Source: an uncultured bacterium
GTDB taxonomy: Bacteria; Patescibacteriota; Patescibacteriia; CAIQCM01
Length of the DNA: 64,000 nt
Assembly (NCBI GenBank): GCA_963708045.1
Contig: OY970181.1
Location: 195,740 to 259,739, forward strand
Direction: 5' to 3'
This document shows, piece by piece, positions 9,495-31,226 of the stretch. The translations under genes were made by a program, and so were the position numbers. The notes beneath the pieces are model-generated. The model made no database searches, was not told where the DNA came from, and was given only the letters and a program-made list of their open reading frames with translations. Within the stretch, counting starts at the first letter, position 1; each line of letters opens with the position of its first letter.

Positions 9495-9555
9495 TAAAGT
9501 GGCATTACGCTTCCATGGCATGGAAGAGGTTCGGGTTCGATTCCCGATGGGTCCA
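9485..9555 (+). tRNA. tRNA-Ala(GGC)
   Basis: Hand-folded cloverleaf. Acceptor gggccca/tgggtcc with a G3:U70 pair and A73. D-stem gtaa/ttac. Anticodon stem cttcc/ggaag with loop atGGCat. T-arm tcggg-ttcgatt-cccga. No encoded CCA. Confidence 0.7.
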
Positions 9556-10724: not shown

Positions 10725-10803
10725 TCCGGTTGGTAAATTTAAAACCCGCGTCATAACTTTTGGAAATGACGCGGGGCGGGACAAATCTTTGTCGCGCCAA
10801 TTT

Positions 10804-12536: not shown

Positions 12537-14960
12537 TTACAGTCGGCTTTTTTCCGGAAGCGGTGTGGGTGTTCCTTTGTCTGGCGTGGTTGGGGCTTTA
12601 CCGTTCATTTCGGCGGTGACAGCGTCAACACGAGTTTTTACCGTCGCATTTTCCGGATCAGTTTTAAGAATGGCATTTAGCTGGGTAAGCGCTTCGGAAT
12701 ATTTTTTCGCGTCTTCGTAAACCGTGGCAAGAAGCCAGCGCGCGTCGGCATAAGTCTCGTCAATCGCAATGGCGCGTGTGAGTGCGGCCTCGGCTTTGTC
12801 TTTGGTGCCAGTGAGATAATACATTAACCCGAGGCTATAAACGACGCCGGCGTCATTCGGGTTTTGAGTGGCGACCTCTTCAAGTTTTTTAATCGCCTCA
12901 TTAGCTTTTCCTTGTCGCTCATAAACAACGGCTAGTTGATAACTTGCTTGCGCGTAGTCGGATTTTAATTCAAGCGCTTTTCCAAATTCAGCTTCCGCCG
13001 CCGCGAGTTCGTCAGTTTTTACTTTTTGCGCCGCCGCTTTGGCAGCATCGTCCTTGGCCGAGGTTGCGCTTGTAGATGCGCGGTTTGCGAGAATCATATG
13101 AACGCGACCAAGACCAAGATGTTGAACGGGCGAAGCCGGCTCAAGCAACACCGCTTGATTGTAGGCGGCAATGGCATTTTCCGGAGCATCCGAGACGTAG
13201 GCCGAAATGGTTTCATAAACCGCACCAAGAAGCGACCAATTTTGTACATTTTTTGACGAAATAACCGTCGCTTGCTTGGCGGTATTAATCGCTGCCATCG
13301 TAAGGTCATTTATTTTTTTGCCGCGCGCCGTGGCGTCCATTGTCTGGTCGTATAAAAGCGCTTGGATTTTGATTAAGTAAGCCTGGGCTAGATTGCGAAG
13401 AACAAGATCAGACTGTCCGTTTGCCGAAGCGGCTTTTTCAAATTCACCCAGAGCCAGATCAATTTGCTTAGATGCGTCACGCGAGCCAGCCTTGGCGGAA
13501 AGCGTGTCAGCATAAAGTTTTGTTCCGGTAACAAACCAACCGACCGTGAACAAAATGACCGTTAACACAAAGAAAAAAGTCATTCCCAAAGCCGCCCGCG
13601 GCGAATCGCTAAAACGAATCGTGACCGAATCTTTGGAAACGGCGCGCATCAGCAGGGCAAAAACCACCCAAAAGACAAAGAGGGTGGCGAGCGACGCGCC
13701 ATAAAAAATCATCCCGGCTACCGAAGCAAGAAAAGCCGCCGTAAGACCAAGGGTGGAAAGCCAGTTGGCATCATCGCGCTCTTTGCCAAAAATAAGATAA
13801 GCGGCCGATTTCCAAAGACCGATAACCACGAGAAAAAGCCAAGCGATTAAACCGGCAAAGCCCGTCGTTGCGGCAAGGGTGAGCAAAAATGAATTAGCGC
13901 GATCAAAACGCACGTACCAGACCGAGCTTTTGTTAATGAGCGTGTCGCGGAAGCGCGAAAAATCATCGGCAAAAGTGCCAGGGCCGCTTCCTAAGATCGG
14001 ACTGCTTTTTAGCGCTTCGCCCGTAATTTTAAACGACTGCTGGGTTGAAGGGAAAATTTCAACCGGCGCGCGAACAGGAAGCGGCACATTCACAAAAAGA
14101 AACAACGCTGCTAAAACCAACACGCCCATTGGAACGGCGAGCCAAGTAAGTCGGCTAATGGAGCGAGGACGAACCAGCGCATAAGCCAGCAGAGCGACCA
14201 AACCGACGATCACCGCGACCCAGATTGGCCAAAAATTTATGACCAAAACTATGAGCAGGGAAAAAAACCCAAAAACTCCAGCAACAATCCTTTTCGCAAG
14301 CGTGTTTTTTCCAAGATCAGCAACAAGAAAATAAGTAGCGGTCGCAACCACCGCCACCGCCGAAAGCAAACCCAGCGTAACGGTTGAACCGACAAAATTA
14401 AATGATTGATTTTTGATAAACGGCAAAACATTAAGGCCAGCGTATGACAAAAATGCTTGAAGCGCGGCGAGACCGGTTACGACAATAAAAACCAGAATAA
14501 CTTTATTCGCAATCTTGACGCGGGCAGGCAAGTTAACAATGGCAAAAAACAAAAAAACAAAAAGCGCTGTTGTTGCGAGCGAGACATACTCCTCGCCCCC
14601 GTCGCCGATGCCGGAAATATATTTTGCATTGGAAAACAGCGTCGCAACAATCATCACGCCCAAAAAAATGAGCGCGCCAAGATTGGCAATGGTGCGGCGC
14701 AAAACAATCGCTTTTTCAATAAGCATTGAACCGACCCATGAAAGAAAAATGATTGTCACGAGAACAAGCAGGGCGACTTGTTTAGGAAGTTCTAGTGCCT
14801 GGCTTGTAAACGGCAAGAAAAAAAGCGGGATGAGCGCCGCGGCGACTAGCACGACCCACTCGTTTATTTTTATAAGGAAGGCACCGAACTTGTTCGGTGA
14901 CGCGAGCTTAGGCTCGTTTGCCGCGGAAACGCCGGCCGAGGAAATAAATTGTTTGGCCAT
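12537..14960 (-). CDS. polytopic membrane protein with O-antigen-ligase-like TM core and C-terminal TPR repeats
   Basis: 807 aa. About 12 TM helices in the first ~480 aa. The C-terminal ~300 aa hold TPR-like repeats (YQLAVVYERQGKANEAIKKLEEV, YSLGLMYYLTG, ARWLLATVYEDAKKYSEA). Confidence 0.5.
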   Translation of the reverse strand: MAKQFISSAGVSAANEPKLASPNKFGAFLIKINEWVVLVAAALIPLFFLPFTSQALELPKQVALLVLVTIIFLSWVGSMLIEKAIVLRRTIANLGALIFLGVMIVATLFSNAKYISGIGDGGEEYVSLATTALFVFLFFAIVNLPARVKIANKVILVFIVVTGLAALQAFLSYAGLNVLPFIKNQSFNFVGSTVTLGLLSAVAVVATATYFLVADLGKNTLAKRIVAGVFGFFSLLIVLVINFWPIWVAVIVGLVALLAYALVRPRSISRLTWLAVPMGVLVLAALFLFVNVPLPVRAPVEIFPSTQQSFKITGEALKSSPILGSGPGTFADDFSRFRDTLINKSSVWYVRFDRANSFLLTLAATTGFAGLIAWLFLVVIGLWKSAAYLIFGKERDDANWLSTLGLTAAFLASVAGMIFYGASLATLFVFWVVFALLMRAVSKDSVTIRFSDSPRAALGMTFFFVLTVILFTVGWFVTGTKLYADTLSAKAGSRDASKQIDLALGEFEKAASANGQSDLVLRNLAQAYLIKIQALLYDQTMDATARGKKINDLTMAAINTAKQATVISSKNVQNWSLLGAVYETISAYVSDAPENAIAAYNQAVLLEPASPVQHLGLGRVHMILANRASTSATSAKDDAAKAAAQKVKTDELAAAEAEFGKALELKSDYAQASYQLAVVYERQGKANEAIKKLEEVATQNPNDAGVVYSLGLMYYLTGTKDKAEAALTRAIAIDETYADARWLLATVYEDAKKYSEALTQLNAILKTDPENATVKTRVDAVTAEMNGKAPTTPDKGTPTPLPEKSRL

Positions 14961-15061: not shown

Positions 15062-15742
15062 TTATTTTTTTCTTTTTCCAAAAATTCGCGCGTAGAAAAT
15101 TATCATTATCGCCGAGAGCACACCGCCAGCTGCCGCCGCTAAAAGCGCGTGCCACCATATCTCGGCGTTATTACTAACTATTGGCACGACCATGTGAACT
15201 GGCTGATTAGTGTTAACATTCCCTTCGCTTTCCGAACCACCAATATTTAACGAAAATGTTCCGCGCGACGAAATAACGTTTGTGCCAAGTCCGTCATTTG
15301 CATAAAGTCCGGACGCCTCAGAAATATCAATCATCGCTTGCCCGGTTTTTTTTGCGTAAAACGTTATTTCGCCGACGCTATCGTTTTTTAAAATCTTGGC
15401 CGGCTCAATTCCACCCTCTATTGTTATTAACCCATTGGAAATTGTCCCCTTTGTGACATAAAGAGTTATAACCGAACGATCGGTAACGTTTTTAACTTCC
15501 AGCATATCGGTTGGATATAAAATTTCCGCGCCAATCGCGTTAACTGCAACGTCGCTTGAAGCAAGAACATTAACAACAAACGTTTGACCTTCTTTAACTG
15601 TCGTTGGATTAACGTCAAAAAAGAGCGTGCCCGAAGCAGCTTTGGCAAAATTTTCACTGGGAGCAGAAAATATTATGAGCGCCAAAAATAATCCGATTCC
15701 GATATTTTTTGACAGAATTAATTTCATATTTATTTTTTCCAA
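15062..15742 (-). CDS. cohesin-domain protein with C-terminal membrane anchor
   Basis: Signal peptide, then a beta-sandwich-like segment TLFFDVNPTTVKEGQTFVVNVLASS...AEILYPTDMLEV...GEITFYAKKTG. C-terminal TM helix + KRKK. Overlaps the upstream dockerin gene by 13 nt. Confidence 0.5.
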   Translation of the reverse strand: MEKINMKLILSKNIGIGLFLALIIFSAPSENFAKAASGTLFFDVNPTTVKEGQTFVVNVLASSDVAVNAIGAEILYPTDMLEVKNVTDRSVITLYVTKGTISNGLITIEGGIEPAKILKNDSVGEITFYAKKTGQAMIDISEASGLYANDGLGTNVISSRGTFSLNIGGSESEGNVNTNQPVHMVVPIVSNNAEIWWHALLAAAAGGVLSAIMIIFYARIFGKRKK

Positions 15743-16740
15743 TAATAAAGAAGGATGGAGAAATCAACCAAATTTATTTTCCCGTCGGCGTTTAGGTCGT
15801 AATTAATCGGAAAAGTTTTCTTTTTAAAGAAAGCGATCAGAATGGAAACGTCCTGCAAATTTACTTTGCCATCGCAATTAAAATCGCCTTTAAGCGAACA
15901 GCTTTTCACGGGCGCAGGCGCCGCCTTGGTTATTGAATCGCTTAGGGTTGAGGTGGCGCTTGCGCCCAAAAAGCTAGCCGTCGCTTCAATACTAAAAACG
16001 CCTTCGGCAAACCCGGCCGTGTCAAAAACCGTTTGCCACGCTCCGTCTATTCCCGGAACAACGACGTGAAGAATCGATCTGCCCGAACTCGGCGGCTTTA
16101 AAACGACCGAGAGGATTGAACCGGGCATGGCGCTACCGGTCACAATAATTTTGTCGCCGACCGTAACTACTACCGGCGTAGAAGAAATTGACGGCGAAAA
16201 TAAAATACCAGAAACTACGGCCGACGCTGAAAGATTTTTATCGCGAATAACCGATACCGTTCGGCCGTTTGTGTCAGTTGATAAAATTGTTGCCGTATAC
16301 GCTCCGTCACGGCTAACTGAAATCGCAAAGCTTCCGGATGAGTTGGCATACGACGAGCCAACGAGAACGTTATCAATATATATTTGCACAAGTGCCTTGG
16401 GCGAGGTTAGGCCGGAAAAAACCACCGATGGAAAATAAATACTACCGCCGCCACTACCACTCGTTCCCCCGCTCGGCACTGGCGTATTTGATAAGAGCGT
16501 CGCCGCAAAACCGTCGCTTGCGCGAAAATTTGTAGACGAGGCGGTGCCCGAAACCGCTGAGCCAAGCACGCCACCGACTTGAAAATTCGCCGATGATGAA
16601 GAAATACCGCCGTCGTTTAAACTGTCCGAGACCACACTATAGTTTGACGACGACATCGCGGCAAACGATAAGTTTGGAAATATAAATACGCCAAAAACAA
16701 TAACGACAATAATTTTATAGCAAAACTTGTTTCGGAACAT
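15730..16740 (-). CDS. dockerin-domain secreted protein
   Basis: The C-terminus GDFNCDGKVNLQDVSILIAFF...DLNADGKINLVDFSILLYYW holds two canonical Ca-binding dockerin repeats. N-terminal signal peptide. Ser/Gly/Thr-rich beta-rich body. Confidence 0.65.
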   Translation of the reverse strand: MFRNKFCYKIIVVIVFGVFIFPNLSFAAMSSSNYSVVSDSLNDGGISSSSANFQVGGVLGSAVSGTASSTNFRASDGFAATLLSNTPVPSGGTSGSGGGSIYFPSVVFSGLTSPKALVQIYIDNVLVGSSYANSSGSFAISVSRDGAYTATILSTDTNGRTVSVIRDKNLSASAVVSGILFSPSISSTPVVVTVGDKIIVTGSAMPGSILSVVLKPPSSGRSILHVVVPGIDGAWQTVFDTAGFAEGVFSIEATASFLGASATSTLSDSITKAAPAPVKSCSLKGDFNCDGKVNLQDVSILIAFFKKKTFPINYDLNADGKINLVDFSILLYYWKK

Positions 16741-16794: not shown

Positions 16795-19700
16795 TTATTC
16801 CTGCGACACGGGAATTGTTTCTGTCGGTGTTGGTTCAGCTTGAGGCGCCGGACTAATTTCGGCGGACGGTTCGGAAACTGTGGGCTCGGGCATTGGTTCG
16901 TCCGTCGGCGGCGCGCTTTCGGCCGCGGGTTCATTTATGGTATCGGGGTCGGTTGCTGGTTCATTCACCACGGGTTCTTCGGTTGACGGCGTTGTTGTAA
17001 CGGGTTCAACGGGTGGCGTTGGCGTATTTGTAACAGGTTCGTTAACGACCGGAACGGGAGCGGGCGGAGCGGACGGCGCGTTCACGTTTTGTTGACTATT
17101 AAGCAATTGGTCTAGTTGATCTTTGGTAATGCACGTTTCGTTTCCGGTTTTAGCATCACCCACACAAAGTTTGCGCTGGTGCGTTTCATCAAAGTAGCCA
17201 CGGATCGCAGTTACCCGTGCGGCGACAAAGTCGGCAGCAATCTTAGCACCGGCGTTTATTCGGTCAATAAGAGCAGCGATCGGGTCGTGTGGTGTTTCGG
17301 CTTGAATGTCTAGAGCAAAAGATGTAATGCCGTTCGGCAAATCCTTGGAATCAATCAAGCGACCCATAACAAGTGACAGTGCCGGTTCGTCACCAGGATA
17401 ATAAGTATTTTTTATCAACATAATCGCTTCGCTCGCGTCATCGCCATTTGCAGACGAAAGAACCTGACCAATGACGAAACCAGGCGAAGTTGCTTTCATC
17501 GCAACTCCCGGCACCGACGACAAGGTCAAATAATCTCCAGCTCCAATTGCGCCGTTTTCGTCGGAGACCTTAACTGGAACACGACCAGCAAGAGCGAGGC
17601 GAACCGAATGACCATCGTCTTTACCAAGCGTGGTATGTGGGAGAGTAGAAACAACGCCAATTAATTTTTTATTATCTGTTCCCGACGAACGGACAACGGT
17701 TACGGGATTATTAGTGTCCAGACTGACCAACTCGCCGGCAACCGGTTCGTCGCCGGAATAAGGGATCCATTCCGCCAAGTCGGCCGAGTCGGCCGTTCCC
17801 GGCGTGCCGACGACGCGCCAAGCGCCGTTTGCGCGGACAATGGTGTAGTTTTCAATGATTACCACCGAGTTGGTATTGGCGGCACCGGCAGTAACCGTAC
17901 TAACCTGCGTACCGTTTACCTGAACAATGATCGTCGCGTTTTCATTGGCGCCACCACCAACGCCAATGCGTTGAACCTGAGTTTCAATGAAAGCAAACGT
18001 ACCGTCGGTGTTTGGTAATCCAGTAATATTAAAGGTGGTGGTTGGCGCCGCGCCTTGCGTGCCATTTCCTGTTGAACAAGTAGTTGTCACATTGCAAAGG
18101 CTCAAAAAATAAACAAGCGCTTTGGTTGAGACCGTTACCGTGTCGTTGGCTGTGGTTAGGTGGACGTTGTTCAAGCTGTTGCCGCCCCAGTTGCCGGCGA
18201 CATCAATAGTGCGGCCAGTCGTAGCGCTCGGGGTCACGCCGATTGTTAAACCTTGATCCCATCCGGCACCAATGTTGATCGCCGTTTCTGTTCCGGCGCC
18301 GCCGGTGATATTAGAGATACCCAAACCGTTCAATGATCCGGCGCCGATGCCCGCGGCGGCAATCTCAACGCCGTTTGCTGTTCCGTTGGTCGTGATCGTA
18401 CCAGTGTTTACCATGACGCCACTTGCCGTGACTGCGCCGCCGGCGGATTGCGTGATTCCCGGCAGGGTGACATTGACGCCGTGCCAGAGGAATGATCCAG
18501 CTGTCCCGTTCGTGATCGCGCCAGCCGTTGTCAAATTGTAGCCGTTATAAATGGTTGCGTTAGAAGTTGTTGAGGCGGTCGGCAGTTTCAAATCAAAACC
18601 GGTGATATTTTGTCCGGCGGATGGCGCGGTCAAGTTGGCGTTCATATCAAAAGCAAGCCCGATCAAAGCGCCTGCGCCTTGATTCGTCGCTGCGCCGTAA
18701 GCGCCGTTCATGATCGTGCCGGTGGTGTTGGTAAAATTAATGTCCACGATTTTTCCGGAAGTCGAAGTTGAGTTAAGCCGCAACAAAGTTCCGGAGGTAA
18801 GCGAGGTATCGTTAAAGACAAAGGACGAAGCCGTCGTCACACCGGTCGCATTTGACGAAGTAAAAGTTTGTGCGCCCGTGCCGGAAGTAAAGCCGATAGA
18901 GGCTAAGGAAGAGTTACCGATTATGACCGTGCCGGTTGAGGTGCCAGCGTTAATTGAGGTGTTAAAGTTGGAGTTATCATTCAAACTCACCGCCGCACCG
19001 GAAACGGTGAGGCCGAGATTACCAGTAAGCAAACCCGCTGAGGTGATTGTACCGCTTCCCGTTGTTGAAATGTTGTTTGACGTTGAAATCGTGTTCGCGG
19101 TCGCAATCGTGCCAAAGCCGGAGGCGATGGATCCAGAAGTAAGAATGCCAACCGTTGTTAAAGAAGAAGTGACCACGCCCGAAGCCAGTGTCGTGCCGGA
19201 AATATCAGCGGCCGCGTTCACGGTGATGGTTGCGTTCGGGAAAGTAATTGTTTTAGAAGTAACCGTCGGATCGGTAATCGCAAAAATTGTTTTCACGGCA
19301 TCGGCGGTCGCACCGTCAAAGGAAAGTGGCGAGGCGCCGGTCACGTTGCCCGAAGAAAGCGTAATGTTTCCGTTCGCGGTAAGGGTTTGAGTGACGGTAA
19401 GCGCGCCATTATTCGTTGTCGTAATCCCCGTCTTGCCCAAGGAAACCGAGGTTGCGCCGGACGTGCCAAGGTTGAGGGCGGAGGCGGAATCAACCGTAAG
19501 CGCGCCCACCAAAGTACTCCAAGTGGAAGCAGCGCCAGCTGTGAGTGTTAAGGCGCCGGACGAAGTTGACCAAGTTGAAGCCGCACCAGCTGTGAGTGTA
19601 AGTGCGCCACCAGAAGTAAACTGTGACGCACTGGTCGGCGTAAGATTAACAGCACCAGCGCCGGTCGCATTAAAATTTCCCGAGGTTAAGGTGTAGGCGA

Positions 19701-22700
19701 TATTCGCGCCCGAGGTCGTGATTGTCGCTCCGTTATCATAAGCTTCTTGAAGCGTTGTCGCGCCCGCGGTATCGCAATCTTTCCAAGCAATATTTTCAAA
19801 ACAACGGAATTTATTCGCGTTAGCGTTATAGTACATCGCGCCAACTGATCCCGTGGGGTCGCCGGCGCTAGATTTTATGTCGGTAACCAAAAGGTCAGGT
19901 GTGGTCACGCCGGCACCAGAACCGATTTGAACATTTGCAGTCTGCCCCGCGCCCGCAACTTGCAGTGAAAGATTTCCCGCGCTCGTGCCCCAGGTAGCGG
20001 CGGCGGCAGAAGTAAGCGTTAAGGCACCGGATGATGATTGCCAAGTTGCCGCGCCGGCCGAAGTAATATTCATTGAGCCCGCAGCAGTCAAAATTGTTGA
20101 TGTACCAAGTGAAACCGTGCCCGAACCAGCTTGGAGCGTTAAATTTCCGGCTGAAGTTGACCAGGTTGAAGCCACGCCAGCGGTAACGGTAATGGCCGCG
20201 CCCGAGACAACACCAATCGCGCCAGCCGCCCCACTCCCAATTGTCACCGTTCCCGTGGACGTTCCATTATTAATATTTGTATTAAAATTTGACGAAGAGT
20301 TTAAATTAACCGCCGCGCCCGTAACATTCAAACCAAGCGAGCCAGTAAGCAGTTGACTCGCGGTTAAGGCGCCGTTTATTGTTGTGGTTATTCCGCTTCG
20401 CGAAATGGAAATTGCCGAGGCATTCGTCGTGCCAACGTTCACCGTTCCCGCCGTACCCGTCGCCGTTCCCGCGTCAATCGTGACGTTACCAGAATTTGAT
20501 GTTGCCCCACCAGCATTTCCCGTAACAAGCGACACGGCGGCGGAATTGGTAGAGCCGGCGGTTTGATTTAAAGTTTTTAATGTAAGGGTGCCGGTGCTTC
20601 CCGAAGAAATCGTTGTCGTTTGGGCAAAAGTTAGGTTGCCCAGATTATCAATCCGCGCGCGTTCAACCGGCGAACCGACATTAAGCGTTTCAAAACGGAT
20701 CGCGCCGGTTTCGGCGCCTGGCGTCACGTTGGTAAGAATTCCAGAAAGCCGCGCGGCCGGGACTTCGGTGCCAATATTATTTTGCGCGCGCAAAAGCATT
20801 CCCACGCCAAGACCGGCAGCCGGCGTGCCCGAGGTTGCATGTTCCAAAACAAGAACGTCGGAAATGTCGTTATTGATCGCGTCTTCTTGTTCCACATAAA
20901 GCTTAGTACCAGTATGCGGCGTACTAGTTCCAAGGCTAAGCTGTTTACTCGCGTTGTCCCAGTAAAATTCATTATCGCCCGTTTGCGTATTTGATCCGTT
21001 CCAAAAAGAAACTTGTCCGGACGTACCTGTACCCGACACACTCGCGCCGCCAGCGCAGTCAATCCAAGCATTATCAATGTAGCAGCGAAAAGTTTTAGTA
21101 ACCGTATTATAATAGGTGGCGCCGTTGGTTGACGGCGGGGTGGCGGGGTCGGAGGCTTTGTTTGAAAAAATTAAAAGCGACGAGTTGGCAATTTTAATAT
21201 TTCTTGTCGCCGAAAGATTAAGGTCGGTTGTTGCGTCAGAGTTTGTAATTGTGTTTGTTCCAGCAGCAAACGTAAGCGTGCCTGATGAAGAAGAAAGTGA
21301 AAGCGCCGCGCCGCCGCCAGACGAAACCGCGAGTGCCCCAGTACTTGCAAGCGAACTACCCGAGAGTGTTGTCGCGCCAGTAACTAGACTTGTGCCAAAA
21401 TAACCCGTGCGCCAGCGATTTCCACTCGCGCCAACATCCAAAGCATTATCGGTTGTACCAGGTTGAAGCGTGCCCACTTCGGTGATGCGCAATTGTTCGG
21501 TCAGAACGCCGCCGCCCACGCGCGTAAAGAAACCAAGCATTGAATCTTCGGTGCCATTTGCGGTGTTGGTTAAGACTGCAGAAATACCACCGCTATCGGC
21601 GAGCGCGCCAGCATCATTTTCATTTCTAAATAAAAGATTTGAACCAATACCGTTTCCGGCCACGGCGGTCGTGGTGTGATCAAGCACAAGAACGGTTGAT
21701 GAATTATTATTAACCGCGTCATCCAACGAAATATCGGCCTTGGTTCCGGCGGGCGGTGCAGTGGCGCCAATTTGCAACTGATCGGCGAAATTTTTCATTT
21801 GATTAATGAGCCCGACTTCGGTCCACGTTCCCAAACAATCTTGCCAAACACCGGCTTTATAGCAACGGAATTTATCATCAGCAGAATTGTAATACATCGC
21901 GCCGTTAACACCACTTGGATCGCCGGAAGTTGATTTGGCGTCCATAACCAATAGATCAGGCGTTGCCGATGGCGCACCCGTTCCAATCTGGATATTTCCC
22001 GTTCCGGAACCGGCAGCAATGAACGAAAGGTTACCTGCCAAAGTTCCCCAAGTGGCGGCCGAAGCCGAAGTTAACGTAAGCGCGCCGGCGGAAGTTGACC
22101 AGGTAGAAGTTGCACCGGCGGTGAATGTCAGCGCACCGGCGGAAGTGAATTGCGACGCGGCGGTTGGCGTAAGGTTAACAGCGCCCGTGCCGGTCGCGTT
22201 AAAGTCGCCCGAAGTTAAGGTGAAAAGAATCGGCGTTGATGACGAGGTTGTTACCGAAGCGCCAGCGTTATAAGCCGTCTGAAGCGTTGTCGTGCCGCCC
22301 GTCGTATCACAGTCTTTCCACCCTCCACCTTCGTAACAGCGAAATTTTGCGGCTATGGAATTGTAATACATGGCGCCGTTCGCGCCCCCCGCAGGATCGC
22401 CAGCGTTTGATTTCAAATCAACAACCAATAAATCAGGCGTTGTTGATCCTCCGGCGCCGATTTGAACATCGGCCGTCACTCCAGTTCCAGCCGCCTGCAA
22501 AGAAAGATTTCCAGCCGACGTTCCCCAAGTTGAAGCCGCGCCGGCGGTAAAAGTGAGCGCACCGGCCGAAGTAAATTGCGAGGCGGCTGTCGGCGTAAGG
22601 TTAACCGCGCCGGTGCCAGTGGCGTTAAAGTCGCCCGAAGTTAAGGTGAAAAGAATCGGCGTTGATGAACCGGTAATAATCGCGTTTCCATTATTATATG

Positions 22701-25700
22701 CCGTTTGTAAATTAACCGTGCCGCCTGTTGTGTCACAGTCGGACCACGAACCGTTTAAATAACAACGAAATTTATTTGTAGCTGAGCTGTAGTAAATAGC
22801 GCCATCCACGCCAGACGGATCAGCAAGCTGACTTCCCAAAACCAACAAATTTGAATCATCTATTTTTGTGTTAGCCGTTGCTTTCAAAATTATATCCGTC
22901 GTTGCGTTGGTGTTAGATATCGTATTAGTACCAGCGGCGAGTTTCAAAATTCCCGAACCCGAATCAAGCGAAAGGTCGCCACTCGTCGTTCCCCAAGTTG
23001 AGGCCGCGCCGGCGGTAAAGGTGAGTGCACCAGCCGAAGTAAATTGCGAGGCGGCGGTTGGCGTGAGATTAACAGCGCCGGTGCCGGTCGCATTAAAGTC
23101 GCCCGAGGTTAAAGTGAAAAGAATCGGCGTCGATGACGAGGTCGTAATTGAACTGCCGTTATCGTACGCACTTTGCAAAGTAGTCGCGCCTGAAGTATCG
23201 CAATCTTTCCAACTGATATTTTCATAGCAACGGAATTTATTAAGGTTAACATTATAGTACATTGCGCCAACCGATCCCGTTGGATCGCCGGCATTTGATT
23301 TTAAATCAACAACCAAAAGATCGGGCGTGACTGATCCAGCGCCAGAACCGATTTGAATATTCGCAGTTGTCCCGCTTCCGGCTGGCTGAAAAACTAGATT
23401 ACCCGTTGCCGTGGCAAGCGAACCATCAGCCAGGGTCGTGTTTGCGTTCACAATCGCGCTTGTGCCAAGATATGCTGTACGCCAAACATTTCCCGTTGCG
23501 CCGATGTCTTCGGCGTTGCTGGTCAAAGCTGGCAACAAGCCAGCGGCTGTTATACGCAGGCGTTCGGTCGCGGCCCCGCCGCCGGTTCTAGTTTCAAAAC
23601 TTATTGCCGAGGCTTCAGCGCCCGAGGCCGCGTTGGTAAGAAGGGCATTAATGTGCCCGACGTTGGTTATGGAACCGGCGTCATTTTCGCTCCTAAAATT
23701 TATTCCCAATCCAATCCCCGCCGCCGCCGTTCCGCTAGTCGTATGATCAATCGTCACGACATTTGAAATATCGTTAGCCGTCGCGTCGTCGGAAACGATC
23801 TGTAGTTTGGTGTCTGCAACTGGCGACGCCGTACCAATACCAACCTGATCAGAAATAGTGGTAAGCCGCGTAACGCCGCTCGCGCTTATAAAAGCGCCAA
23901 CTGCGCAGCCGCCCCAGACTCCGTTTAAATAACAGCGCATTTGATTTGTCGCGGTGTTGTAGTACATCGCGCCGTTTGTCGCGGGCGGCGAAGCTGGGTC
24001 AGCTGCTTTTGATGACATCACAACAAGCGACGAATCGGCGATCTTCACGTTGCGCTGACTGCCGATAATAAGGTCGGTGCCAACGTCGGTGTTTGACAAA
24101 GAATTTGATCCGGCACCCAAAGAAACCGTACCCGAGCTGGAAGCAAGGCTTAGCCCACCAGTCGCATTGACCGTAAACGAACCAGTTGAAGTTACAGAGC
24201 TGCCGGCATAAGTTGCTGAACCGATTACGACGCTCGTTCCAAAATAACCCGTGCGCCAGCGATTTACCGCCGAACCAATATCCTGACCATTGTCGCTCGC
24301 GCCAGGAATAAGAAAACCCTGATCATCTATACGCAAGCGCTCGGTGAGCGGACCGCCAGCCGTGCGTGTTTGAAAAGTAAAAGCGCTATCTTGCGCGCCC
24401 GAAGTCACATCGGTAAGAATTGAAGTTATGCGACCGCTTAAACTTGGAGTACCAACACTGTTTTCCGCGAGAAAAACCAAACCGTTGCCAATTCCGTTTG
24501 CCGCCGCTCCTGTCGTTGAATGAACAAAAGCGCCAACGTCGGTATAAGTATTATTTGCCGTGTCGTTGACGGAAACAGAAAGCGGTGCCGTTGTCGTGTT
24601 TGTTCCAATGCCTAAATGTTTGGTCGTGTTATCCCAAAACAATCCGCTATCGCCGGTTTGCGAATTTGTCCCATTCCAAAAAGCAACCTGACCAGCAGAA
24701 CCAATACCGGTTACCGTGCCGCCCGTAATGCAATCCATCCACCCGCCACCAGCAAAACAGCGAAACTTATCCGTTGCTGTATCGTAATACATTGCGCCAT
24801 TAACGCCAGTTGGATCGGTTGCTTGTGAGCCCAAAATTAAAGTGTCAGCATCGGCAATTTTTATATCGCCCTCGGCATCAAGCACAAGATTAGTGCCGAG
24901 GTCGGTATTAATAATCGTATTTGTTCCCGCGCCCAAATGTAAAAATCCAGAACCAGCGGTCAAAGAAAGGTCGTTTGCGCCGCCCGAGGCAATTTCTAGC
25001 GCGCCTGTTGCATTAAGGTTGGTAGTGGTTCCCAAAGAAATAATTCCCGACCCGGCCTGCAGAGTTAAGTTGCCAGCGGTCGTGCTCCAAGTAGAAGCAC
25101 CCGCGCCAGTAATTGTTAGCGCGCCTGTACCCGAAGACAAGTTTACCGCGCCTGTGCCAGTGTATGATTGGCCAGGCGCCACGCTTACGCTTCCAGTACC
25201 GGAGAAAGAAATTAAATCAGCGCCGCCGAAAGTTTCAAACCGAACAAGCGGCGCGGTCTGTGTTGAAAATCCTGTTACGGTAAATTGCGTTTCGTCGGCT
25301 GTAGGTACGCCAGCCGTACTTAAATCAGAAAGATAGGCGACGGTACCGGATTCATTTTTAAAAGTAATTGTTCGCGACGAAGTTGGATCGGTAATTGCAA
25401 AAGTTGTTTTGTTGGCGTTTGCCGTTGCTCCGTCAAAAACAAGCGGCGAAGCGCCGAGAATATTTCCTGAAGAAAAGACAATTCCCCCGTTTGCCGTTAA
25501 CGTCGCCGCCGTTGTTAAATCACTTTGAACCGTAGTTGTGATGCCGGTTTTTCCAAGGGTAATCGCCATTGCATTTAAAGTACCGAGGTTAAGGGTTGTT
25601 GCCGAATCCAACGTAAGTGCGCCGGCCGAAGTTGACCACACCGAAGCCGCGCCAGCCGTAAGCGTAAGGGCGCCGGACGAAGTAAATTGCGACGCGCTGG

Positions 25701-26664
25701 TCGGCGTTAAATTTATCGCTCCCGCGCCAGTCGCATTAAAATTTCCGTTTGCCAAATTAAATAAAATCGCATCTCCCCCACTCGTATTAATTGTTTGGCC
25801 ATTATTATAAACCGATTGCAGGGTTGAAGTACCGCCAGTTGTGTCACAGTCAGCCCACGAACCATTTACAAAACAACGAAATTTATTTGTTAGCGTATTG
25901 TAATATGTCTGACCATTAACACCCGACGGATCAGCGACAGCCGAGCCCAAAATTAAACCGCCGCCGATTGTCGTGAGCATTCCCGCGCTACCCAAATTTA
26001 CATTTTGCGTTAGCGTTAAATTTCCCGAGGCGTCGGTAACCGGCACAAACGCCGAGGCGCCGCCGACAGCCGACGTGCCAAATGAATTTAATTTCAAACT
26101 ATTTAACGATTGATATACCGCCGACATCCGCGTGCGCGGTGTCATTTCGGCATCGGTATTAATTTTTAAACCCAAGTAACGACTGTCGTCGGAAAATATC
26201 GCGTCTGGCAAATTATTTTGTCCGCCCGAAGTTGAGTCGCCTAAAAGTACAGAAAATAATCCATTAGTAACACCGACCGATACCGTCCCAAGCAACCCGC
26301 AATCAGTCGTATTTGCGTTTGCATCAGTATCAGCCGCTGACCAAACACAGGTGCCGCCCGAAGCAGAATCGTAAATAGCGATCTGCATATTGTAAGTTCC
26401 ATTTGCAACATTGCTTCCAGCTGTATCAGTCAACCGTCCTTGGTAATTTAAAAGTCTAACAACACCACTTGCACCAAAGGCCGGCTTAGCAATTCCAAAA
26501 AATAGTGAAGAAAAAATTAAAAACGACAAAACAAAACCAGACCAAGCCGCGCGGCGCGCACTTGGCAAAAAATGTTTCAATGTATTTTTAAAATTCATTG
26601 AATTTGTCTGTTTTTTTATAAACAACAGAACAAATAATTTCTCTGGTCGGTTTATAACAACCAA
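16795..26664 (-). CDS. giant secreted/surface repeat protein (3289 aa)
   Basis: Single uninterrupted ORF. N-terminal signal/TM. Very Gly/Thr/Ser/Ala/Asn-rich with many internal repeats (recurrent ...DPSGVNGAMYYN...KFRCY.NG.W.DCDT.GGT... modules). Globular C-terminal domain followed by a Pro/Thr/Glu-rich tail. Confidence 0.8.
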   Translation of the reverse strand: MVVINRPEKLFVLLFIKKQTNSMNFKNTLKHFLPSARRAAWSGFVLSFLIFSSLFFGIAKPAFGASGVVRLLNYQGRLTDTAGSNVANGTYNMQIAIYDSASGGTCVWSAADTDANANTTDCGLLGTVSVGVTNGLFSVLLGDSTSGGQNNLPDAIFSDDSRYLGLKINTDAEMTPRTRMSAVYQSLNSLKLNSFGTSAVGGASAFVPVTDASGNLTLTQNVNLGSAGMLTTIGGGLILGSAVADPSGVNGQTYYNTLTNKFRCFVNGSWADCDTTGGTSTLQSVYNNGQTINTSGGDAILFNLANGNFNATGAGAINLTPTSASQFTSSGALTLTAGAASVWSTSAGALTLDSATTLNLGTLNAMAITLGKTGITTTVQSDLTTAATLTANGGIVFSSGNILGASPLVFDGATANANKTTFAITDPTSSRTITFKNESGTVAYLSDLSTAGVPTADETQFTVTGFSTQTAPLVRFETFGGADLISFSGTGSVSVAPGQSYTGTGAVNLSSGTGALTITGAGASTWSTTAGNLTLQAGSGIISLGTTTNLNATGALEIASGGANDLSLTAGSGFLHLGAGTNTIINTDLGTNLVLDAEGDIKIADADTLILGSQATDPTGVNGAMYYDTATDKFRCFAGGGWMDCITGGTVTGIGSAGQVAFWNGTNSQTGDSGLFWDNTTKHLGIGTNTTTAPLSVSVNDTANNTYTDVGAFVHSTTGAAANGIGNGLVFLAENSVGTPSLSGRITSILTDVTSGAQDSAFTFQTRTAGGPLTERLRIDDQGFLIPGASDNGQDIGSAVNRWRTGYFGTSVVIGSATYAGSSVTSTGSFTVNATGGLSLASSSGTVSLGAGSNSLSNTDVGTDLIIGSQRNVKIADSSLVVMSSKAADPASPPATNGAMYYNTATNQMRCYLNGVWGGCAVGAFISASGVTRLTTISDQVGIGTASPVADTKLQIVSDDATANDISNVVTIDHTTSGTAAAGIGLGINFRSENDAGSITNVGHINALLTNAASGAEASAISFETRTGGGAATERLRITAAGLLPALTSNAEDIGATGNVWRTAYLGTSAIVNANTTLADGSLATATGNLVFQPAGSGTTANIQIGSGAGSVTPDLLVVDLKSNAGDPTGSVGAMYYNVNLNKFRCYENISWKDCDTSGATTLQSAYDNGSSITTSSSTPILFTLTSGDFNATGTGAVNLTPTAASQFTSAGALTFTAGAASTWGTTSGDLSLDSGSGILKLAAGTNTISNTNATTDIILKATANTKIDDSNLLVLGSQLADPSGVDGAIYYSSATNKFRCYLNGSWSDCDTTGGTVNLQTAYNNGNAIITGSSTPILFTLTSGDFNATGTGAVNLTPTAASQFTSAGALTFTAGAASTWGTSAGNLSLQAAGTGVTADVQIGAGGSTTPDLLVVDLKSNAGDPAGGANGAMYYNSIAAKFRCYEGGGWKDCDTTGGTTTLQTAYNAGASVTTSSSTPILFTLTSGDFNATGTGAVNLTPTAASQFTSAGALTFTAGATSTWSTSAGALTLTSASAATWGTLAGNLSFIAAGSGTGNIQIGTGAPSATPDLLVMDAKSTSGDPSGVNGAMYYNSADDKFRCYKAGVWQDCLGTWTEVGLINQMKNFADQLQIGATAPPAGTKADISLDDAVNNNSSTVLVLDHTTTAVAGNGIGSNLLFRNENDAGALADSGGISAVLTNTANGTEDSMLGFFTRVGGGVLTEQLRITEVGTLQPGTTDNALDVGASGNRWRTGYFGTSLVTGATTLSGSSLASTGALAVSSGGGAALSLSSSSGTLTFAAGTNTITNSDATTDLNLSATRNIKIANSSLLIFSNKASDPATPPSTNGATYYNTVTKTFRCYIDNAWIDCAGGASVSGTGTSGQVSFWNGSNTQTGDNEFYWDNASKQLSLGTSTPHTGTKLYVEQEDAINNDISDVLVLEHATSGTPAAGLGVGMLLRAQNNIGTEVPAARLSGILTNVTPGAETGAIRFETLNVGSPVERARIDNLGNLTFAQTTTISSGSTGTLTLKTLNQTAGSTNSAAVSLVTGNAGGATSNSGNVTIDAGTATGTAGTVNVGTTNASAISISRSGITTTINGALTASQLLTGSLGLNVTGAAVNLNSSSNFNTNINNGTSTGTVTIGSGAAGAIGVVSGAAITVTAGVASTWSTSAGNLTLQAGSGTVSLGTSTILTAAGSMNITSAGAATWQSSSGALTLTSAAAATWGTSAGNLSLQVAGAGQTANVQIGSGAGVTTPDLLVTDIKSSAGDPTGSVGAMYYNANANKFRCFENIAWKDCDTAGATTLQEAYDNGATITTSGANIAYTLTSGNFNATGAGAVNLTPTSASQFTSGGALTLTAGAASTWSTSSGALTLTAGAASTWSTLVGALTVDSASALNLGTSGATSVSLGKTGITTTNNGALTVTQTLTANGNITLSSGNVTGASPLSFDGATADAVKTIFAITDPTVTSKTITFPNATITVNAAADISGTTLASGVVTSSLTTVGILTSGSIASGFGTIATANTISTSNNISTTGSGTITSAGLLTGNLGLTVSGAAVSLNDNSNFNTSINAGTSTGTVIIGNSSLASIGFTSGTGAQTFTSSNATGVTTASSFVFNDTSLTSGTLLRLNSTSTSGKIVDINFTNTTGTIMNGAYGAATNQGAGALIGLAFDMNANLTAPSAGQNITGFDLKLPTASTTSNATIYNGYNLTTAGAITNGTAGSFLWHGVNVTLPGITQSAGGAVTASGVMVNTGTITTNGTANGVEIAAAGIGAGSLNGLGISNITGGAGTETAINIGAGWDQGLTIGVTPSATTGRTIDVAGNWGGNSLNNVHLTTANDTVTVSTKALVYFLSLCNVTTTCSTGNGTQGAAPTTTFNITGLPNTDGTFAFIETQVQRIGVGGGANENATIIVQVNGTQVSTVTAGAANTNSVVIIENYTIVRANGAWRVVGTPGTADSADLAEWIPYSGDEPVAGELVSLDTNNPVTVVRSSGTDNKKLIGVVSTLPHTTLGKDDGHSVRLALAGRVPVKVSDENGAIGAGDYLTLSSVPGVAMKATSPGFVIGQVLSSANGDDASEAIMLIKNTYYPGDEPALSLVMGRLIDSKDLPNGITSFALDIQAETPHDPIAALIDRINAGAKIAADFVAARVTAIRGYFDETHQRKLCVGDAKTGNETCITKDQLDQLLNSQQNVNAPSAPPAPVPVVNEPVTNTPTPPVEPVTTTPSTEEPVVNEPATDPDTINEPAAESAPPTDEPMPEPTVSEPSAEISPAPQAEPTPTETIPVSQE

Positions 26665-27260
26665 GACTCTTTCTCCTCATATATATTATACACCTCGCCG
26701 GACGTTTAAGAAATATATATATCCACAAATTTTTTATTTAAAAACAATAAAAAAATAGCAGGGATGGTAATGCCAACCCCGAATTGTATCTGTCTTCCTT
26801 CCTACCAACTTCCTAATTGCAGAATACTAATTTTGGTTGATAATACGATCCCTGCATGATTCCGCTTACGGCACGCCGATGACGCAATGGAATTTTTGCA
26901 GAAAACTCTGGCTAGTGATTTTTCACATCCAGTAATTTTATGCTTAGCGATGTATCCATCAAAAGATGGACTTTATAAAGAGCTATAGGTCAAACCCCTA
27001 ACGCTTAACAACATTTACGTAATTTGACGTAAATATTTGCCGAAAGTAATTTTCTGCAATTATTTGCGTAAAACTAAGCAAATTTTTAAGAACCATTTTC
27101 ACCCCTAACTTACCGTGTTTTTATAATACCATTTTTTTACAAAATTTTCAACCCCCAAAAGTGGACAACTCTGTGTATAGATTGTGTATTTGTATACACT
27201 AGCGTACACAAATACCTTATCCACCCTCTGTGTTTAACCTTATTCGTAGTTTCTTTTAGC

Positions 27261-27290
27261 TTGACAAGTAATTAACTTGTCTGATATATT
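27261..27290 (+). promoter_or_regulatory. sigma70-like promoter (TTGACA-18-TATATT) overlapping a palindrome gacaagtaattaacttgtc
   Basis: ttgacaagtaattaacttgtctgatatatt lies directly upstream of the LAGLIDADG ORF. Confidence 0.5.
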
Positions 27291-27305
27291 GTTCCACGTG
27301 GAACT

Positions 27306-27698
27306 ATGTTATCTGAAGATTTTCTCGCGGGATATATATCTGGTCAAGGCACGTTTATGAATATCAGGGTTAGAAATACTCACTACCCCGTTTTTCAAAT
27401 TAAATCGTCGGTTGATAATTATGGTTTACTGCTTAAAATTGCCAAGTCGTTAAATGCCTTTAACTGTGTTCATAAATACAAACATGGTAAACAAACTTAT
27501 TCAATCTTGATTATCAGAGACCGGCAAACGATTTTAGAAACCCTGATACCACTTTTAAACGATCGGATTGAGGGCGAGAAAAAAACTAAATTTTTTGTGT
27601 GGAGAGATGAGTTTCTAAAAAATTGTTCCACGTGGAACTATAGGGAAATAAAAAATACTAAAAATATCCAAATTGATGACGAGCCCAAAGAAGAGTAG
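27306..27698 (+). CDS. single-motif LAGLIDADG homing endonuclease-like protein
   Basis: MLSEDFLAGYISGQGTFMNIR... carries the LAGLIDADG-type motif. 130 aa, free-standing. Confidence 0.6.
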   Translation: MLSEDFLAGYISGQGTFMNIRVRNTHYPVFQIKSSVDNYGLLLKIAKSLNAFNCVHKYKHGKQTYSILIIRDRQTILETLIPLLNDRIEGEKKTKFFVWRDEFLKNCSTWNYREIKNTKNIQIDDEPKEE

Positions 27699-28116
27699 TT
27701 ATTCCGTATGGAACAATAATCTATACACATATTTGGATTTAACGGCTAATAGTAGGGGAATAATTTGGGGACACAATGTTTATAACTAAAATACACCCCG
27801 TTTATAACGGGGTGTATTTTATTGGACTCTAGGAGAATCGGACTCCTGTCTCCGCAATGCGAATGCGGCGTACTACCACTGTACGAAGAGCCCGAGCGAG
27901 GCGCAAAGTACAAAATAATATTTTGGACTTTTGCCGAGCGAGGGCTCTAAAATCGCGACTACTGTCTTTAAGAGCGATTTTCAGAGCCTACGTATGGATA
28001 TTGGTACTCCACGACTATTTGATTGAATACTAACGTTTGACTGTATATTTATACACAAGTTGACAAATATTTGCAAATGAAATATAGTACCGTACTAGAA
28101 CGAATTTATATTTCAT

Positions 28117-30151: not shown

Positions 30152-30658
30152 ATGCCAAACTCTCGTCGCGCTTTTACCTTAATTGAACTCCTTGTCGTGA
30201 TTGCAATCATTGGCTTATTGTCAACGATCGCGGTTGTTAGTTTGAGTTCGGCTCGTTCTCGGGGCAACGCCGCCAAAATGGCGGGCGATCTTCACGCGAT
30301 TAAGGTAGCTTTAGATATATATTTAAATACTAATGATACTTATCCGTGTTTTGATCATTTGTGGAGCGACACTTGGGAATCAACATGGTCAGCGCCAAAT
30401 ATTAAATGGCCAAAAACTCCCTATAATTCTCATTATCATTTTGAAGATAAAGTTGGTTGGGCAACAGACCCCTTCACATACTCAATCAGTTTAGAAAATA
30501 TTCCGCTTCGCGATGCGCAAGCCTTAGACAAACTGATAGACGACAATTCGTTGGGCACGGGCATGGTTCGTCAGACTACAGGCACCGACCCAATACGAGT
30601 TGAGTGGGGCGGAATTGACCAAAACCCTCCAACACCAAATCCTGAAACTTGCCCATAA
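30152..30658 (+). CDS. type IV pilin-like protein (class III signal peptide)
   Basis: MPNSRRAFTLIELLVVIAIIGLLSTIAVVSL is a prepilin N-terminus, with Ala rather than Gly at -1. Confidence 0.75.
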   Translation: MPNSRRAFTLIELLVVIAIIGLLSTIAVVSLSSARSRGNAAKMAGDLHAIKVALDIYLNTNDTYPCFDHLWSDTWESTWSAPNIKWPKTPYNSHYHFEDKVGWATDPFTYSISLENIPLRDAQALDKLIDDNSLGTGMVRQTTGTDPIRVEWGGIDQNPPTPNPETCP

Positions 30659-30698: not shown

Positions 30699-31226
30699 AT
30701 GTCTCGTCGCGCTTTTACTTTAATTGAACTCCTGGTTGTCATTGCGATTATTGGCCTTCTTAGCACGATCGCGGTTGTGTCATTGAGTTCAACGCGAGTA
30801 AATGCGCGCAATACGCAGCGCAAAGCCAACCTCGTGCAAATTTCAAAAGCATTGGAATTGTATTATGCCGACAACGGCTCATATCCTGATTCAGGTGGTG
30901 TAGGACATGGCGTTTGTAACTATGCTACTGGTTCCCGCCCGGATACAGGTTCTGGTGCGTGGATTCCTAACTTTTCTAATTACATGACACAATTGCCGCA
31001 CGATCCAAACACGAATCAAACCAATCCGAGTAGCGGCAATGGCACGTGTCAAACGGTGGGGTCATTCAATTGCTATATTTATCAATCAAATGGAATCGAC
31101 TATAAACTTTTGGCCCACTGTACGCCCGAGGGCCCTTTAAGCACGACTGATCCTTTTTACGACCCCCTTCGCCCCACATGGGCTTGGCAAATCACGAACA
31201 ACCCTACCGTCACAAGCGGTTGGTAA
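30699..31226 (+). CDS. type IV pilin-like protein, paralog 2
   Basis: MSRRAFTLIELLVVIAIIGLLSTIAVVSLSSTRVNARNTQRKANL..., with a Cys-containing C-terminal domain. Confidence 0.75.
   Translation: MSRRAFTLIELLVVIAIIGLLSTIAVVSLSSTRVNARNTQRKANLVQISKALELYYADNGSYPDSGGVGHGVCNYATGSRPDTGSGAWIPNFSNYMTQLPHDPNTNQTNPSSGNGTCQTVGSFNCYIYQSNGIDYKLLAHCTPEGPLSTTDPFYDPLRPTWAWQITNNPTVTSGW

Follow-up and report, generated by a model that had tools for sequence, protein, structure and literature searches.

A giant predicted surface-fibre gene with a Peptidase_G2-like C-terminal domain in an uncultured bacterium

Cellular fibres that carry phage-type chaperones are already a known concept. The closest described examples are the mosaic adhesive trimer (MAT) fibres of Bdellovibrio bacteriovorus, which act on the cell surface as adhesins in prey recognition (Caulton et al. 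2024, PMC10769870). MAT fibres combine a signal peptide, an N-terminal beta-rich domain of ~130-150 amino acids (aa), a modular stalk and C-terminal ends that can be exchanged; some of these fibres terminate in an autoproteolytic intramolecular chaperone, and the N-terminal domain is taken as cell-proximal (PMC10769870). In the same work, 370 aa of Bd2133 span 142 Å (PMC10769870). A second point of reference is the phi29 tail spike gp12, which is beta-helical (PMC9710869) and whose mature form, gp12*, ends at residue 691 (PMC6542822). Here we describe a giant gene in a 64-kb stretch of contig OY970181.1 from an uncultured bacterium (the whole stretch analysed, hereafter the window), and compare its predicted product, a secreted fibre-like protein, with these systems.

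To our knowledge, little is known of how ultrasmall bacteria of the candidate phyla radiation (CPR, Patescibacteria) find and attach to their hosts beyond type IV pili and the recent Pam pili. Of the proteins compared below, gp12 has wall-polymer-degrading activity and depends on ATP for its cleavage, while bacterial fibres of the S74 type are annotated as 'tail fiber domain-containing protein'.

Like the MAT fibres, the giant protein is cellular, non-virion and tail-fibre-like, with a signal peptide, a conserved N-terminal domain, a long beta-rich modular stalk and a mosaic, exchangeable C-terminal end, which is G2-like here and S74 in its closest relative, P0065. As described, the N-terminal domains of the two systems are similar in size and position. 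The giant protein differs from MAT fibres in that its chaperone is G2-like (gp12 type) instead of S74, in being ~3x longer than MATs (~1,000 aa), in continuing for ~330 aa past the cleavage motif with a helical module and a tail rich in P, T and E, and in belonging to a probably monoderm-like CPR bacterium and not to a diderm predator. With gp12 (PDB 3SUC, 3GQH) it shares the fold of the C-terminal domain, a D-x-A-E motif at the cleavage position and the placement of this domain C-terminal to a beta-rich body. However, the sequence similarity is marginal and falls short of the Pfam threshold, further residues follow the domain in the giant protein, the body has no demonstrable single beta-helix, and the giant protein is a secreted cellular one. 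Fibres of the S74 type, such as K1F endosialidase and T5 pb1, likewise rely on a self-cleaving chaperone at the C-terminus for trimerisation, and the S74 proteins P0058 and P0065 have both the N-terminal domain and a stalk module (B module, GQVAFWNG..LFWDN..LGIGT) in common with the giant protein; the chaperones themselves are nevertheless unrelated in fold and chemistry (D-x-A-E in the giant protein, S-D-x-x-x-K in S74). Finally, the adhesins SiiE, LapA and Bap are similar in size, repeat-rich sequence and presumed adhesive surface role, but the giant protein uses a Sec signal peptide and tail-fibre-type modules, and Pfam searches of its slices at E<=10 found no Ig-like domain, cadherin domain, RTX repeat or type I secretion signal.

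The giant open reading frame and its C-terminal chaperone domain

The giant open reading frame (ORF) lies on the minus strand of the window at 16795..26664, as do all the parts of the protein described below, and comprises 3289 codons from a TTG at 26664 to a stop codon at 16795-16797. An in-frame ATG at 26598 is an alternative start that would give 3267 aa; residue numbers are counted from this ATG throughout (+22 for the TTG start). A stop-free run of 3289 random codons has a chance of ~(61/64)^3289, roughly e^-158, and an ORF of this length is therefore no chance product. The TTG start appears credible, since a GAGGAG Shine-Dalgarno sequence (26678-26673, 8 nt ahead of the TTG) and an extended -10-like box, TGTATAAT (26692-26685), lie upstream of it. 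These putative expression signals (26673..26692) were read by eye, and the box is missing from the output of the consensus promoter scan because its -35 is weak.

The composition of the gene and its product is equally distinctive. G+C is 0.50-0.54 in the giant gene, against 0.38-0.40 in the adjacent upstream region (26-30 kb), and the residues T, G, A, S and N account for 58% of a chain of low charge. All 24 cysteines fall into 12 local pairs, nine of which are the C-x8-C pair of a recurring joint motif; this pairing pattern is a hallmark suggestive of an extracellular protein. An independent short-read assembly (Logan, ERR15459707) holds a contig with the dockerin gene of this locus, found by exact-sequence look-up. 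In it, an uninterrupted ORF of 1809 codons, compared by size and position only, precedes the dockerin gene and reaches the contig edge, which falls within the repeat region of the giant gene, and the downstream genes agree with the window in size and spacing. These matches argue against gross mis-assembly of the 3' half. An exact look-up of the ATG-start form in a collection of 15 billion proteins found no copy.

An earlier note on this DNA, made from the sequence alone, had described a single uninterrupted 3289-aa ORF with an N-terminal signal or transmembrane segment, a G/T/S/A/N-rich chain, and a distinct C-terminal domain followed by a P/T/E-rich tail; each of these features is borne out. 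The same note had found the C-terminal domain reminiscent of phage tail fibres and had proposed structure prediction for this region and for the repeat module. For the C-terminal region, the hunch can now be made precise. The domain begins with DLAEW at aa 2940 and extends to aa 3070 (17389..17781), and it is Peptidase_G2-like, an intramolecular chaperone domain of the kind found in phi29 gp12.

Several lines of evidence carry this assignment. A word-indexed search with the last ~320 structured residues returned 52 relatives. In an AlphaFold model built with the relatives' alignment, aa 2940-3044 reach a predicted local confidence (pLDDT) above 90, and a Foldseek search of the PDB with the DLAEW domain placed the pre-mature phi29 gp12 tail spike (3SUC) at the top (E=1.1e-5, probability 1.0), followed by beta-tulip-like phage decoration proteins. 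By sequence, the family profile matched the cleaved C-terminal fragment of gp12 (3gqh_A, E=0.0098), with DLAE aligned on DFAE, residues 1-4 of that fragment; hhalign of the DLAEW family against the gp12 fragment gave a probability of 80% and E=1.4e-5, and a narrower profile gave a weaker value (E=0.15) with 3GQH again as top match. Pfam PF11962 (Peptidase_G2) was matched by 9 of 53 homologues (best E 1.7e-4), but neither by the whole giant protein at E<=0.1 nor by its C-terminal 401 aa at E<=10. Because the giant protein never reaches the Pfam threshold, we use the name 'G2-like': judging from the model, the domain has the gp12-type fold, and it carries the D-x-A-E motif, while its sequence stays below the family threshold.

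The motif itself (D-L-A-E in the giant protein, aa 2940-2943, 17770..17781) is nearly invariant. It is intact in 176 of 177 instances, 95 of them cellular and 82 viral; by residue, the cellular copies keep D in 94/95, A in 93/95 and E in 94/95, and the viral copies keep all three in 82/82. Given that gp12* ends at residue 691, the aligned D corresponds to the first residue past the cleavage site. D-L-A-E is thus the predicted autocleavage/catalytic motif, with cleavage predicted between A2939 and D2940 (A↓DLAE). Directly before it lies a beta-sandwich domain (aa 2854-2939, 17782..18039; strands E59-E136 of the model, pLDDT 65-83) that is not conserved among relatives sharing the G2-like domain.

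The giant protein belongs to a large family. An exhaustive HMMER search with aa 1-1200 retrieved 6999 cluster representatives at E<=1e-3 (110 at E<=1e-30), many of them 2000-5000 aa long; a word-indexed search with a stalk segment gave eight weak matches, its candidate list being saturated. The closest relative, P0065 (5074 aa), is collinear with the giant protein, to which it is 54% identical over aa 39-1288, 74% over aa 2282-2539 and 49% over aa 3091-3261. In the slot occupied by the G2-like domain in the giant protein, P0065 carries Pfam Peptidase_S74 (39.8 bits). G2-like and S74 domains are therefore interchanged between these two proteins, which on comparison of their sequences reads as a swap of chaperone cassettes. 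Among the best 150 relatives, 23 have G2-like domains and six an S74 motif.

The distribution of the domain is wide. A scan of species-representative genomes (GTDB) yielded at least 592 confirmed matches to the G2-like domain, and the locus counts given here refer to the best ~80 of these. The best 80 loci come mostly from Patescibacteria classes, with some metagenome-assembled genomes (MAGs) labelled Gammaproteobacteria/Pseudomonadales and one Pseudobdellovibrionaceae, and the best match among them is 58% identical; family members also occur in Dokdonella and Endomicrobiales. The median length of ORFs bearing the domain in the species-representative loci is 1745 aa, with several longer than 3400 aa. 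A degenerate pattern for ALAGRVPVK found 86 stretches in IMG/VR, with true relatives in 82 loci. One of the genomic loci, L001, has an ORF of 3292 codons that is common with the giant protein only in the last ~470 aa. Across this ORF (L001, 1577-11455), gene calls give 13 small ORFs, all but one of them antisense. Giant fibre genes of the family look under-represented in protein databases.

N-terminal region, stalk and post-chaperone extension

The N-terminal hydrophobic segment (aa 1-44, 26467..26598) is the sole strongly hydrophobic stretch of the chain, with Kyte-Doolittle windows above 1.6 starting at aa 17. It has the appearance of a signal peptide, for which the sequence suggests cleavage at FFGIAKPAFG↓ASG. 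A conserved beta-rich domain follows (aa 45-190, 26029..26466; YQGRLTD..NGTYNMQIAIYD..C..C..LFSVLLGD..YLGLKIN..MTPRTRM). Of the 234 relatives collected, 83 have this N-domain of ~150 aa immediately behind the signal peptide, paired with a C-terminal G2-like domain or S74 motif. It is present in P0026, P0030 and P0058, and occurs as well in small proteins of 380-530 aa; no Pfam or NCBIfam model matched it.

Between the N-domain and the beta-sandwich extends a modular stalk of ~2,650 aa, rich in G, T, S, A and N (aa 191-2853, 18040..26028), which self-comparison resolves into five units of ~142-158 aa, nine joint motifs, four B modules and other solenoid-like stretches. The five units lie at aa 204-360 (25519-25989), 1086-1240 (22879-23343), 1241-1382 (22453-22878), 1383-1540 (21979-22452) and 2228-2385 (19444-19917), and are 56-72% identical to one another in protein sequence. 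The joint motif, with the consensus DP.G..G.MYYN....KFRCY..G.W.DC and its C-x8-C pair, begins with copy A1 at aa 217-251 (25846..25950; DP.G.NG.YYN....KFRC...G.W.DC), followed by A2 at aa 589-623 (24730..24834), A3 at aa 864-898 (23905..24009), A4 at aa 1099-1133 (23200..23304), A5 at aa 1254-1288 (22735..22839), A6 at aa 1396-1430 (22309..22413), A7 at aa 1554-1588 (21835..21939), A8 at aa 1814-1848 (21055..21159) and A9 at aa 2241-2275 (19774..19878). Successive copies are spaced by 372, 275, 235, 155, 142, 158, 260 and 427 aa, the spacings of 235-427 aa outside the five units being due to the insertion of other module types. The earlier note had proposed a recurring module of ~130-150 aa built on GAMYYN..KFRCY..W.DC; the nine copies of this motif confirm the recurrence, and the module length is true of the five units only.

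The second recurrent element, the B module, measures ~160-170 aa (GQVAFWNG..QTGD..LFWDN..K.LGIGT ... TTG.AA.GIG.G..F..EN ... LTERLRI ... NRWRTGY). By self-comparison, its four copies lie at aa 630-800 (24199..24711), 900-1060 (23419..23901), 1600-1750 (21349..21801) and 1860-2000 (20599..21021). It also occurs in the S74-bearing P0058 and in P0059 and P0061, whose N-termini appear phage-like by eye only.

Structure prediction supports this modularity with less confidence than it does the chaperone. A monomer model of aa 575-905 reached a pLDDT of 68 and a predicted TM-score (pTM) of 0.38; in it, the YYN..FRCY..W.DC joints form small three-stranded sheets (pLDDT 82-87 overall, 83-85 in A2 and 82-87 in A3), and the core of the B module (copy 1) is modelled as four long strands (pLDDT 71-80). 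Against BFVD, this model matched predicted phage proteins at E 4e-7 to 1e-3, those with names being tail fibres, S74 or 'intramolecular chaperone auto-processing' proteins and Mtd-like proteins. Against the PDB, the first matches were Bd1334, Bd2439, Bd3182, T5 pb1 and T4 gp34, all non-significant (E 0.01-0.3, TM-score 0.2-0.3). The matches weakly point toward phage tail fibres and Bdellovibrio MAT fibres, a consistent direction and no proof. Pfam, NCBIfam, PHROGs and PDB-sequence searches with the giant protein and its slices gave nothing usable.

The DNA repeats underlying these modules had been described as long and near-identical, making the gene prone to recombination and possibly variable in phase or length. 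Their positions were given correctly, but the repeat families (D1-D9) are 64-78% identical over 140-263 nt. The longest exact repeat measures 47 nt (at 22196 and 22622, 426 nt apart and in frame) and could at most delete one 142-aa module. Only 40 20-mers are repeated within the gene, the sole notable tandem is of 51 nt in 2.4 copies, and homopolymer runs in the gene stay below 8 for A/T and below 7 for G/C. A search for an invertible promoter brought up the upstream inverted repeats 26814-26836 and 27040-27062, which are 83% complementary with no recombinase found nearby, and are unconvincing. Given the diverged repeats and the absence of homopolymer or other simple-sequence tracts in the gene, neither the proposed proneness to recombination nor phase or length variability is supported.

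At the other end of the chain, ~330 aa follow the cleavage motif, ~200 of which follow the G2-like domain. A post-chaperone module (aa 3071-3170, 17089..17388) consists of a linker, three helices (..DFVAARVTAIRGYFDE..) and a Cys-x10-Cys beta-hairpin; the helices (H297-341 of the model) were predicted at pLDDT 52-70 and the hairpin at ~90. The same module stands behind the S74 chaperone in P0065 and P0032. A low-complexity tail of ~95 aa rich in P, T and E (aa 3171-3267, 16798..17088) completes the protein and contains neither an LPXTG motif nor a transmembrane (TM) helix. Some cellular relatives carry an H-type lectin after the G2-like domain. In the viral (IMG/VR) copies, by contrast with the cellular ones, the G2-like domain ends the protein, with 1-6 residues after it, in ORFs of up to >4000 aa.

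The proposed fibre and competing explanations

The layout of the giant protein matches that of MAT fibres, phage tail fibres and tail spikes, and for this reason we favour, with moderate confidence, the reading that it is a MAT-like or tail-fibre-like trimeric surface fibre, exported by the Sec pathway of a small-genome, probably CPR bacterium and bearing a G2-like chaperone toward its C-terminus. The signal peptide would export the chain, and the ~150-aa N-domain, by analogy with MAT fibres, would hold it at the cell envelope. Some 2,650 residues of shuffled beta-rich modules, split by disulfide-stapled joints, would form a stalk of ~100 nm, if the dimensions of Bd2133 can be extrapolated, with the variable beta-sandwich (aa 2854-2939) at its far end. 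Most likely, the G2-like domain would nucleate the trimerisation of three chains from the C-terminus and then cleave itself off between Ala2939 and Asp2940, exposing the beta-sandwich as the distal binding tip. Such a fibre may serve a probably episymbiotic bacterium in attachment to a surface or a host cell, and members of its family are good candidates for this role. The interpretation of the earlier note is supported in part: a secreted, repeat-rich, fibre-like surface protein finds support in these data, and the episymbiotic host attachment that it envisaged is a plausible function.

Several observations weigh against this reading. Confidence in the stalk monomer model is only moderate, none of the PDB matches of this model reaches significance (E>=0.01), and direct searches of Pfam, NCBIfam and PDB sequences with the giant protein brought no match. 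At the sequence level, its similarity to gp12 is weak (E 0.0098 to 0.15), and a small membrane protein that often accompanies related fibre genes was not found in the window by tblastn or HMM search. Above all, 140-700 residues continue beyond the G2-like domain here and in nearly all cellular relatives; the C-terminal fragment may have its own function, stay attached, or be the anchored end. This extension behind the chaperone is the chief unexplained departure from the phage paradigm.

The extension is the main ground for an alternative in which the fibre has the opposite polarity or remains uncleaved. The C-terminal extension would then be the cell-proximal or functional end and the N-domain a distal adhesin, with the G2-like domain either serving as a knob that keeps the chains trimerised permanently or marking a point of regulated release. 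The contrast with the 1-6 residues of the viral copies, the retention of the post-chaperone module behind G2 and S74 alike, and the H-type lectin found in the same position in some relatives all agree with this alternative. P/T-rich tails, moreover, resemble the wall-spanning regions of Gram-positive surface proteins. Nevertheless, we consider it unlikely: the C-terminus has no LPXTG motif, TM helix or known wall-binding domain, D-x-A-E is kept as strictly as in the viral copies, implying that the cleavage chemistry is retained, and the conserved N-domain of MAT fibres is taken as cell-proximal.

The size, low charge and T/S/G/A/N-rich composition of the giant protein would also suit a structural protein of the envelope, sheath or biofilm matrix that recognises no specific partner cell, and the occurrence of the family beyond CPR (in the Gammaproteobacteria/Pseudomonadales MAGs, Dokdonella and Endomicrobiales) would fit such a general role. 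This explanation seems distinctly less probable. Pfam searches of the whole protein and its slices found no SLH or S-layer domain, while the layout, with a variable domain before the chaperone, mirrors that of receptor-binding fibres. In addition, tip and chaperone cassettes are exchanged between close relatives, as has been reported for the adhesive tips of MAT fibres (PMC10769870).

By analogy with gp12, whose type of chaperone the giant protein carries and which forms a beta-helical spike (PMC9710869), part of the beta-rich body (e.g. aa ~2540-2800) might instead be a tailspike-like enzyme that degrades a wall or capsule polymer of a host or prey. We regard this as very improbable, as no 400-500-aa slice matched a glycosidase, lyase or beta-helix family at E<=10 and no catalytic motif was identified. 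Lastly, although relatives of the C-terminal domain occur in 82 IMG/VR loci, some in ORFs of >4000 aa, and the short-read contig breaks within the repeats, an origin as the tail-fibre gene of a prophage or tailocin, or as an artefactual fusion of several genes during assembly, is scarcely credible, given the housekeeping context with no phage structural genes among the larger ORFs scanned in the window, the signal peptide and cellular N-domain, the 1809-codon ORF of matching size and position before the same dockerin gene in the independent assembly, and the many relatives of 2000-5000 aa.

Taking the protein as a MAT-like fibre, its family appears to extend the known concept in several ways. 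In the literature searched, whose coverage was incomplete, we found no description of a G2-type chaperone on giant cellular fibres, which is weak evidence of novelty; likewise, no description was found of a G2/S74 interchange at a fixed junction or of a conserved post-chaperone extension. We suggest, tentatively and with considerable doubt, that CPR and some other bacteria own a large, essentially unannotated arsenal of giant surface fibres, built by interchangeable G2 and S74 chaperones at a conserved junction, with a post-chaperone extension that phages lack and often a small membrane-protein partner, and possibly including a new step of anchoring, release or quality control as well as determinants of CPR host range. 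Genomes of this kind encode predicted phage-tail-fibre-like fibres thousands of residues long, in which an assembly domain can be recognised and a cleavage site predicted. With at least 592 genome matches and 6,999 cluster representatives, the family is a large one, and yet nearly invisible to annotation. The G2/S74 swap in otherwise collinear proteins offers a clean case of cassettes exchanged between the receptor-binding machineries of phages and cells. If the extension and partner do constitute a new anchoring, release or quality-control step by which wall-bearing ultrasmall bacteria display fibres, and if the variable domain before the cleavage site sets specificity, such fibres would be the long-sought host-range determinants of episymbiotic CPR.

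Neighbouring genes and genomic context

The window sits on a 1.19-Mb contig and holds housekeeping and envelope genes, among them those for PolA, the Pol III delta subunit, PNPase, PBP1, YchF, trigger factor, an H+-PPase and an M23/LysM peptidase. Scanning of the larger ORFs over the 64 kb turned up housekeeping, pilin-like and envelope genes and none for phage structural proteins. The giant gene thus stands in a cellular, chromosomal rather than a prophage context.

The gene 54 nt downstream of the giant gene (15730..16740, minus strand) encodes a secreted protein of 336 aa that has an Ig-like region and, at its C-terminus, a type I dockerin. The dockerin passed the Pfam threshold (Dockerin_1, 36 bits; cut-off 22.9) and matched PDB dockerins at E ~2e-4, while Big_6 stayed under its cut-off. 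Its N-terminal part (SSSNY....GG..SSS.NF..GG) gave matches to NCBIfam PamT (30.7 against 240 bits) and PamR that are far below the cut-offs; they hint at a CPR origin and perhaps at an N-terminal element in common. PamT and PamR are proteins of the Pam pilus of CPR, described in a 2026 preprint (10.64898/2026.03.03.709456). Overlapping the dockerin gene, a cohesin-like gene (15062..15742, minus strand) encodes 226 aa with a signal peptide and a C-terminal TM helix; Pfam Cohesin scored 19.8 bits against a cut-off of 24.1 (E=9.8e-4), and no cohesin was matched among PDB sequences. The best PDB match of this protein was chain 6 of 9zni, deposited as 'CBS domain-containing protein' (E=0.0018, aa 52-127).

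Of the cohesin/dockerin pair named in the earlier note, then, the dockerin is solid and the cohesin remains under threshold. Pfam searches of the whole giant protein and its slices found neither domain. The surface-assembly module that the pair was thought to form would therefore consist of the two neighbours, with the giant protein linked to them by adjacency alone. Homologues of both neighbours lie downstream of G2-type fibre genes in three of ~80 loci (L040, L043 and L081).

After a gap of 101 nt, the cohesin-like gene is followed by one for a protein of 807 aa (12537-14960, minus strand) with C-terminal tetratricopeptide repeats (TPR) and a hydrophobic N-terminal region without a Pfam family. 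G2-type fibre genes are followed directly by a homologue of this TPR protein in L039 (12218-14722), L077 (11668-14232) and L062 (2727-5291), and ten further loci have one elsewhere. That it modifies or exports the T/S-rich fibre is pure speculation.

The commonest neighbour among the relatives is a different one: a small protein of ~170-250 aa encoded directly downstream of the G2-type fibre gene in 31 of 80 loci (e.g. L001 11509-12018, L002 11535-12227), with a core of ..ILYRPST..I.. and no Pfam match. It reads as TM-anchored, with a C-terminal half that looks LytR_C-like by eye, and may be a dedicated assembly or anchoring partner of the fibre. In nine loci, proteins that start with repeated 'YAWS.N.GWINF' motifs follow the fibre gene and this small protein (L001 12024-13208, L002 12297-13394, L003 10224-11540 and six more); the copy in L003 adds SpaA_2 (prealbumin-like) and a weak dockerin-like C-terminus.

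Other features of the window lie further from the giant gene. Some 3.5 kb upstream of it, on the other strand, two adjacent pilin-like genes (30152-30658 and 30699-31226) carry N-terminal methylation motifs. Between the upstream region of the giant gene and a tRNA-Ala(CGC) at 27823-27893 stands a free-standing LAGLIDADG endonuclease ORF (27306-27698, plus strand, within 27287-27728), flanked by a palindrome, GTTCCACGTGGAAC, at 27287-27310 and 27619-27642, with a third partial copy at 27702-27718. A tandem array at 9446-10780 (TRF 9527-10693) comprises ~12.4 copies of a 94-nt period that are 98% identical. It begins at an intact tRNA-Ala gene (9484-9556), and each unit contains the 3' half of tRNA-Ala(GGC), with the T-arm and acceptor end, a terminator-like hairpin and a short tRNA-5'-like piece.

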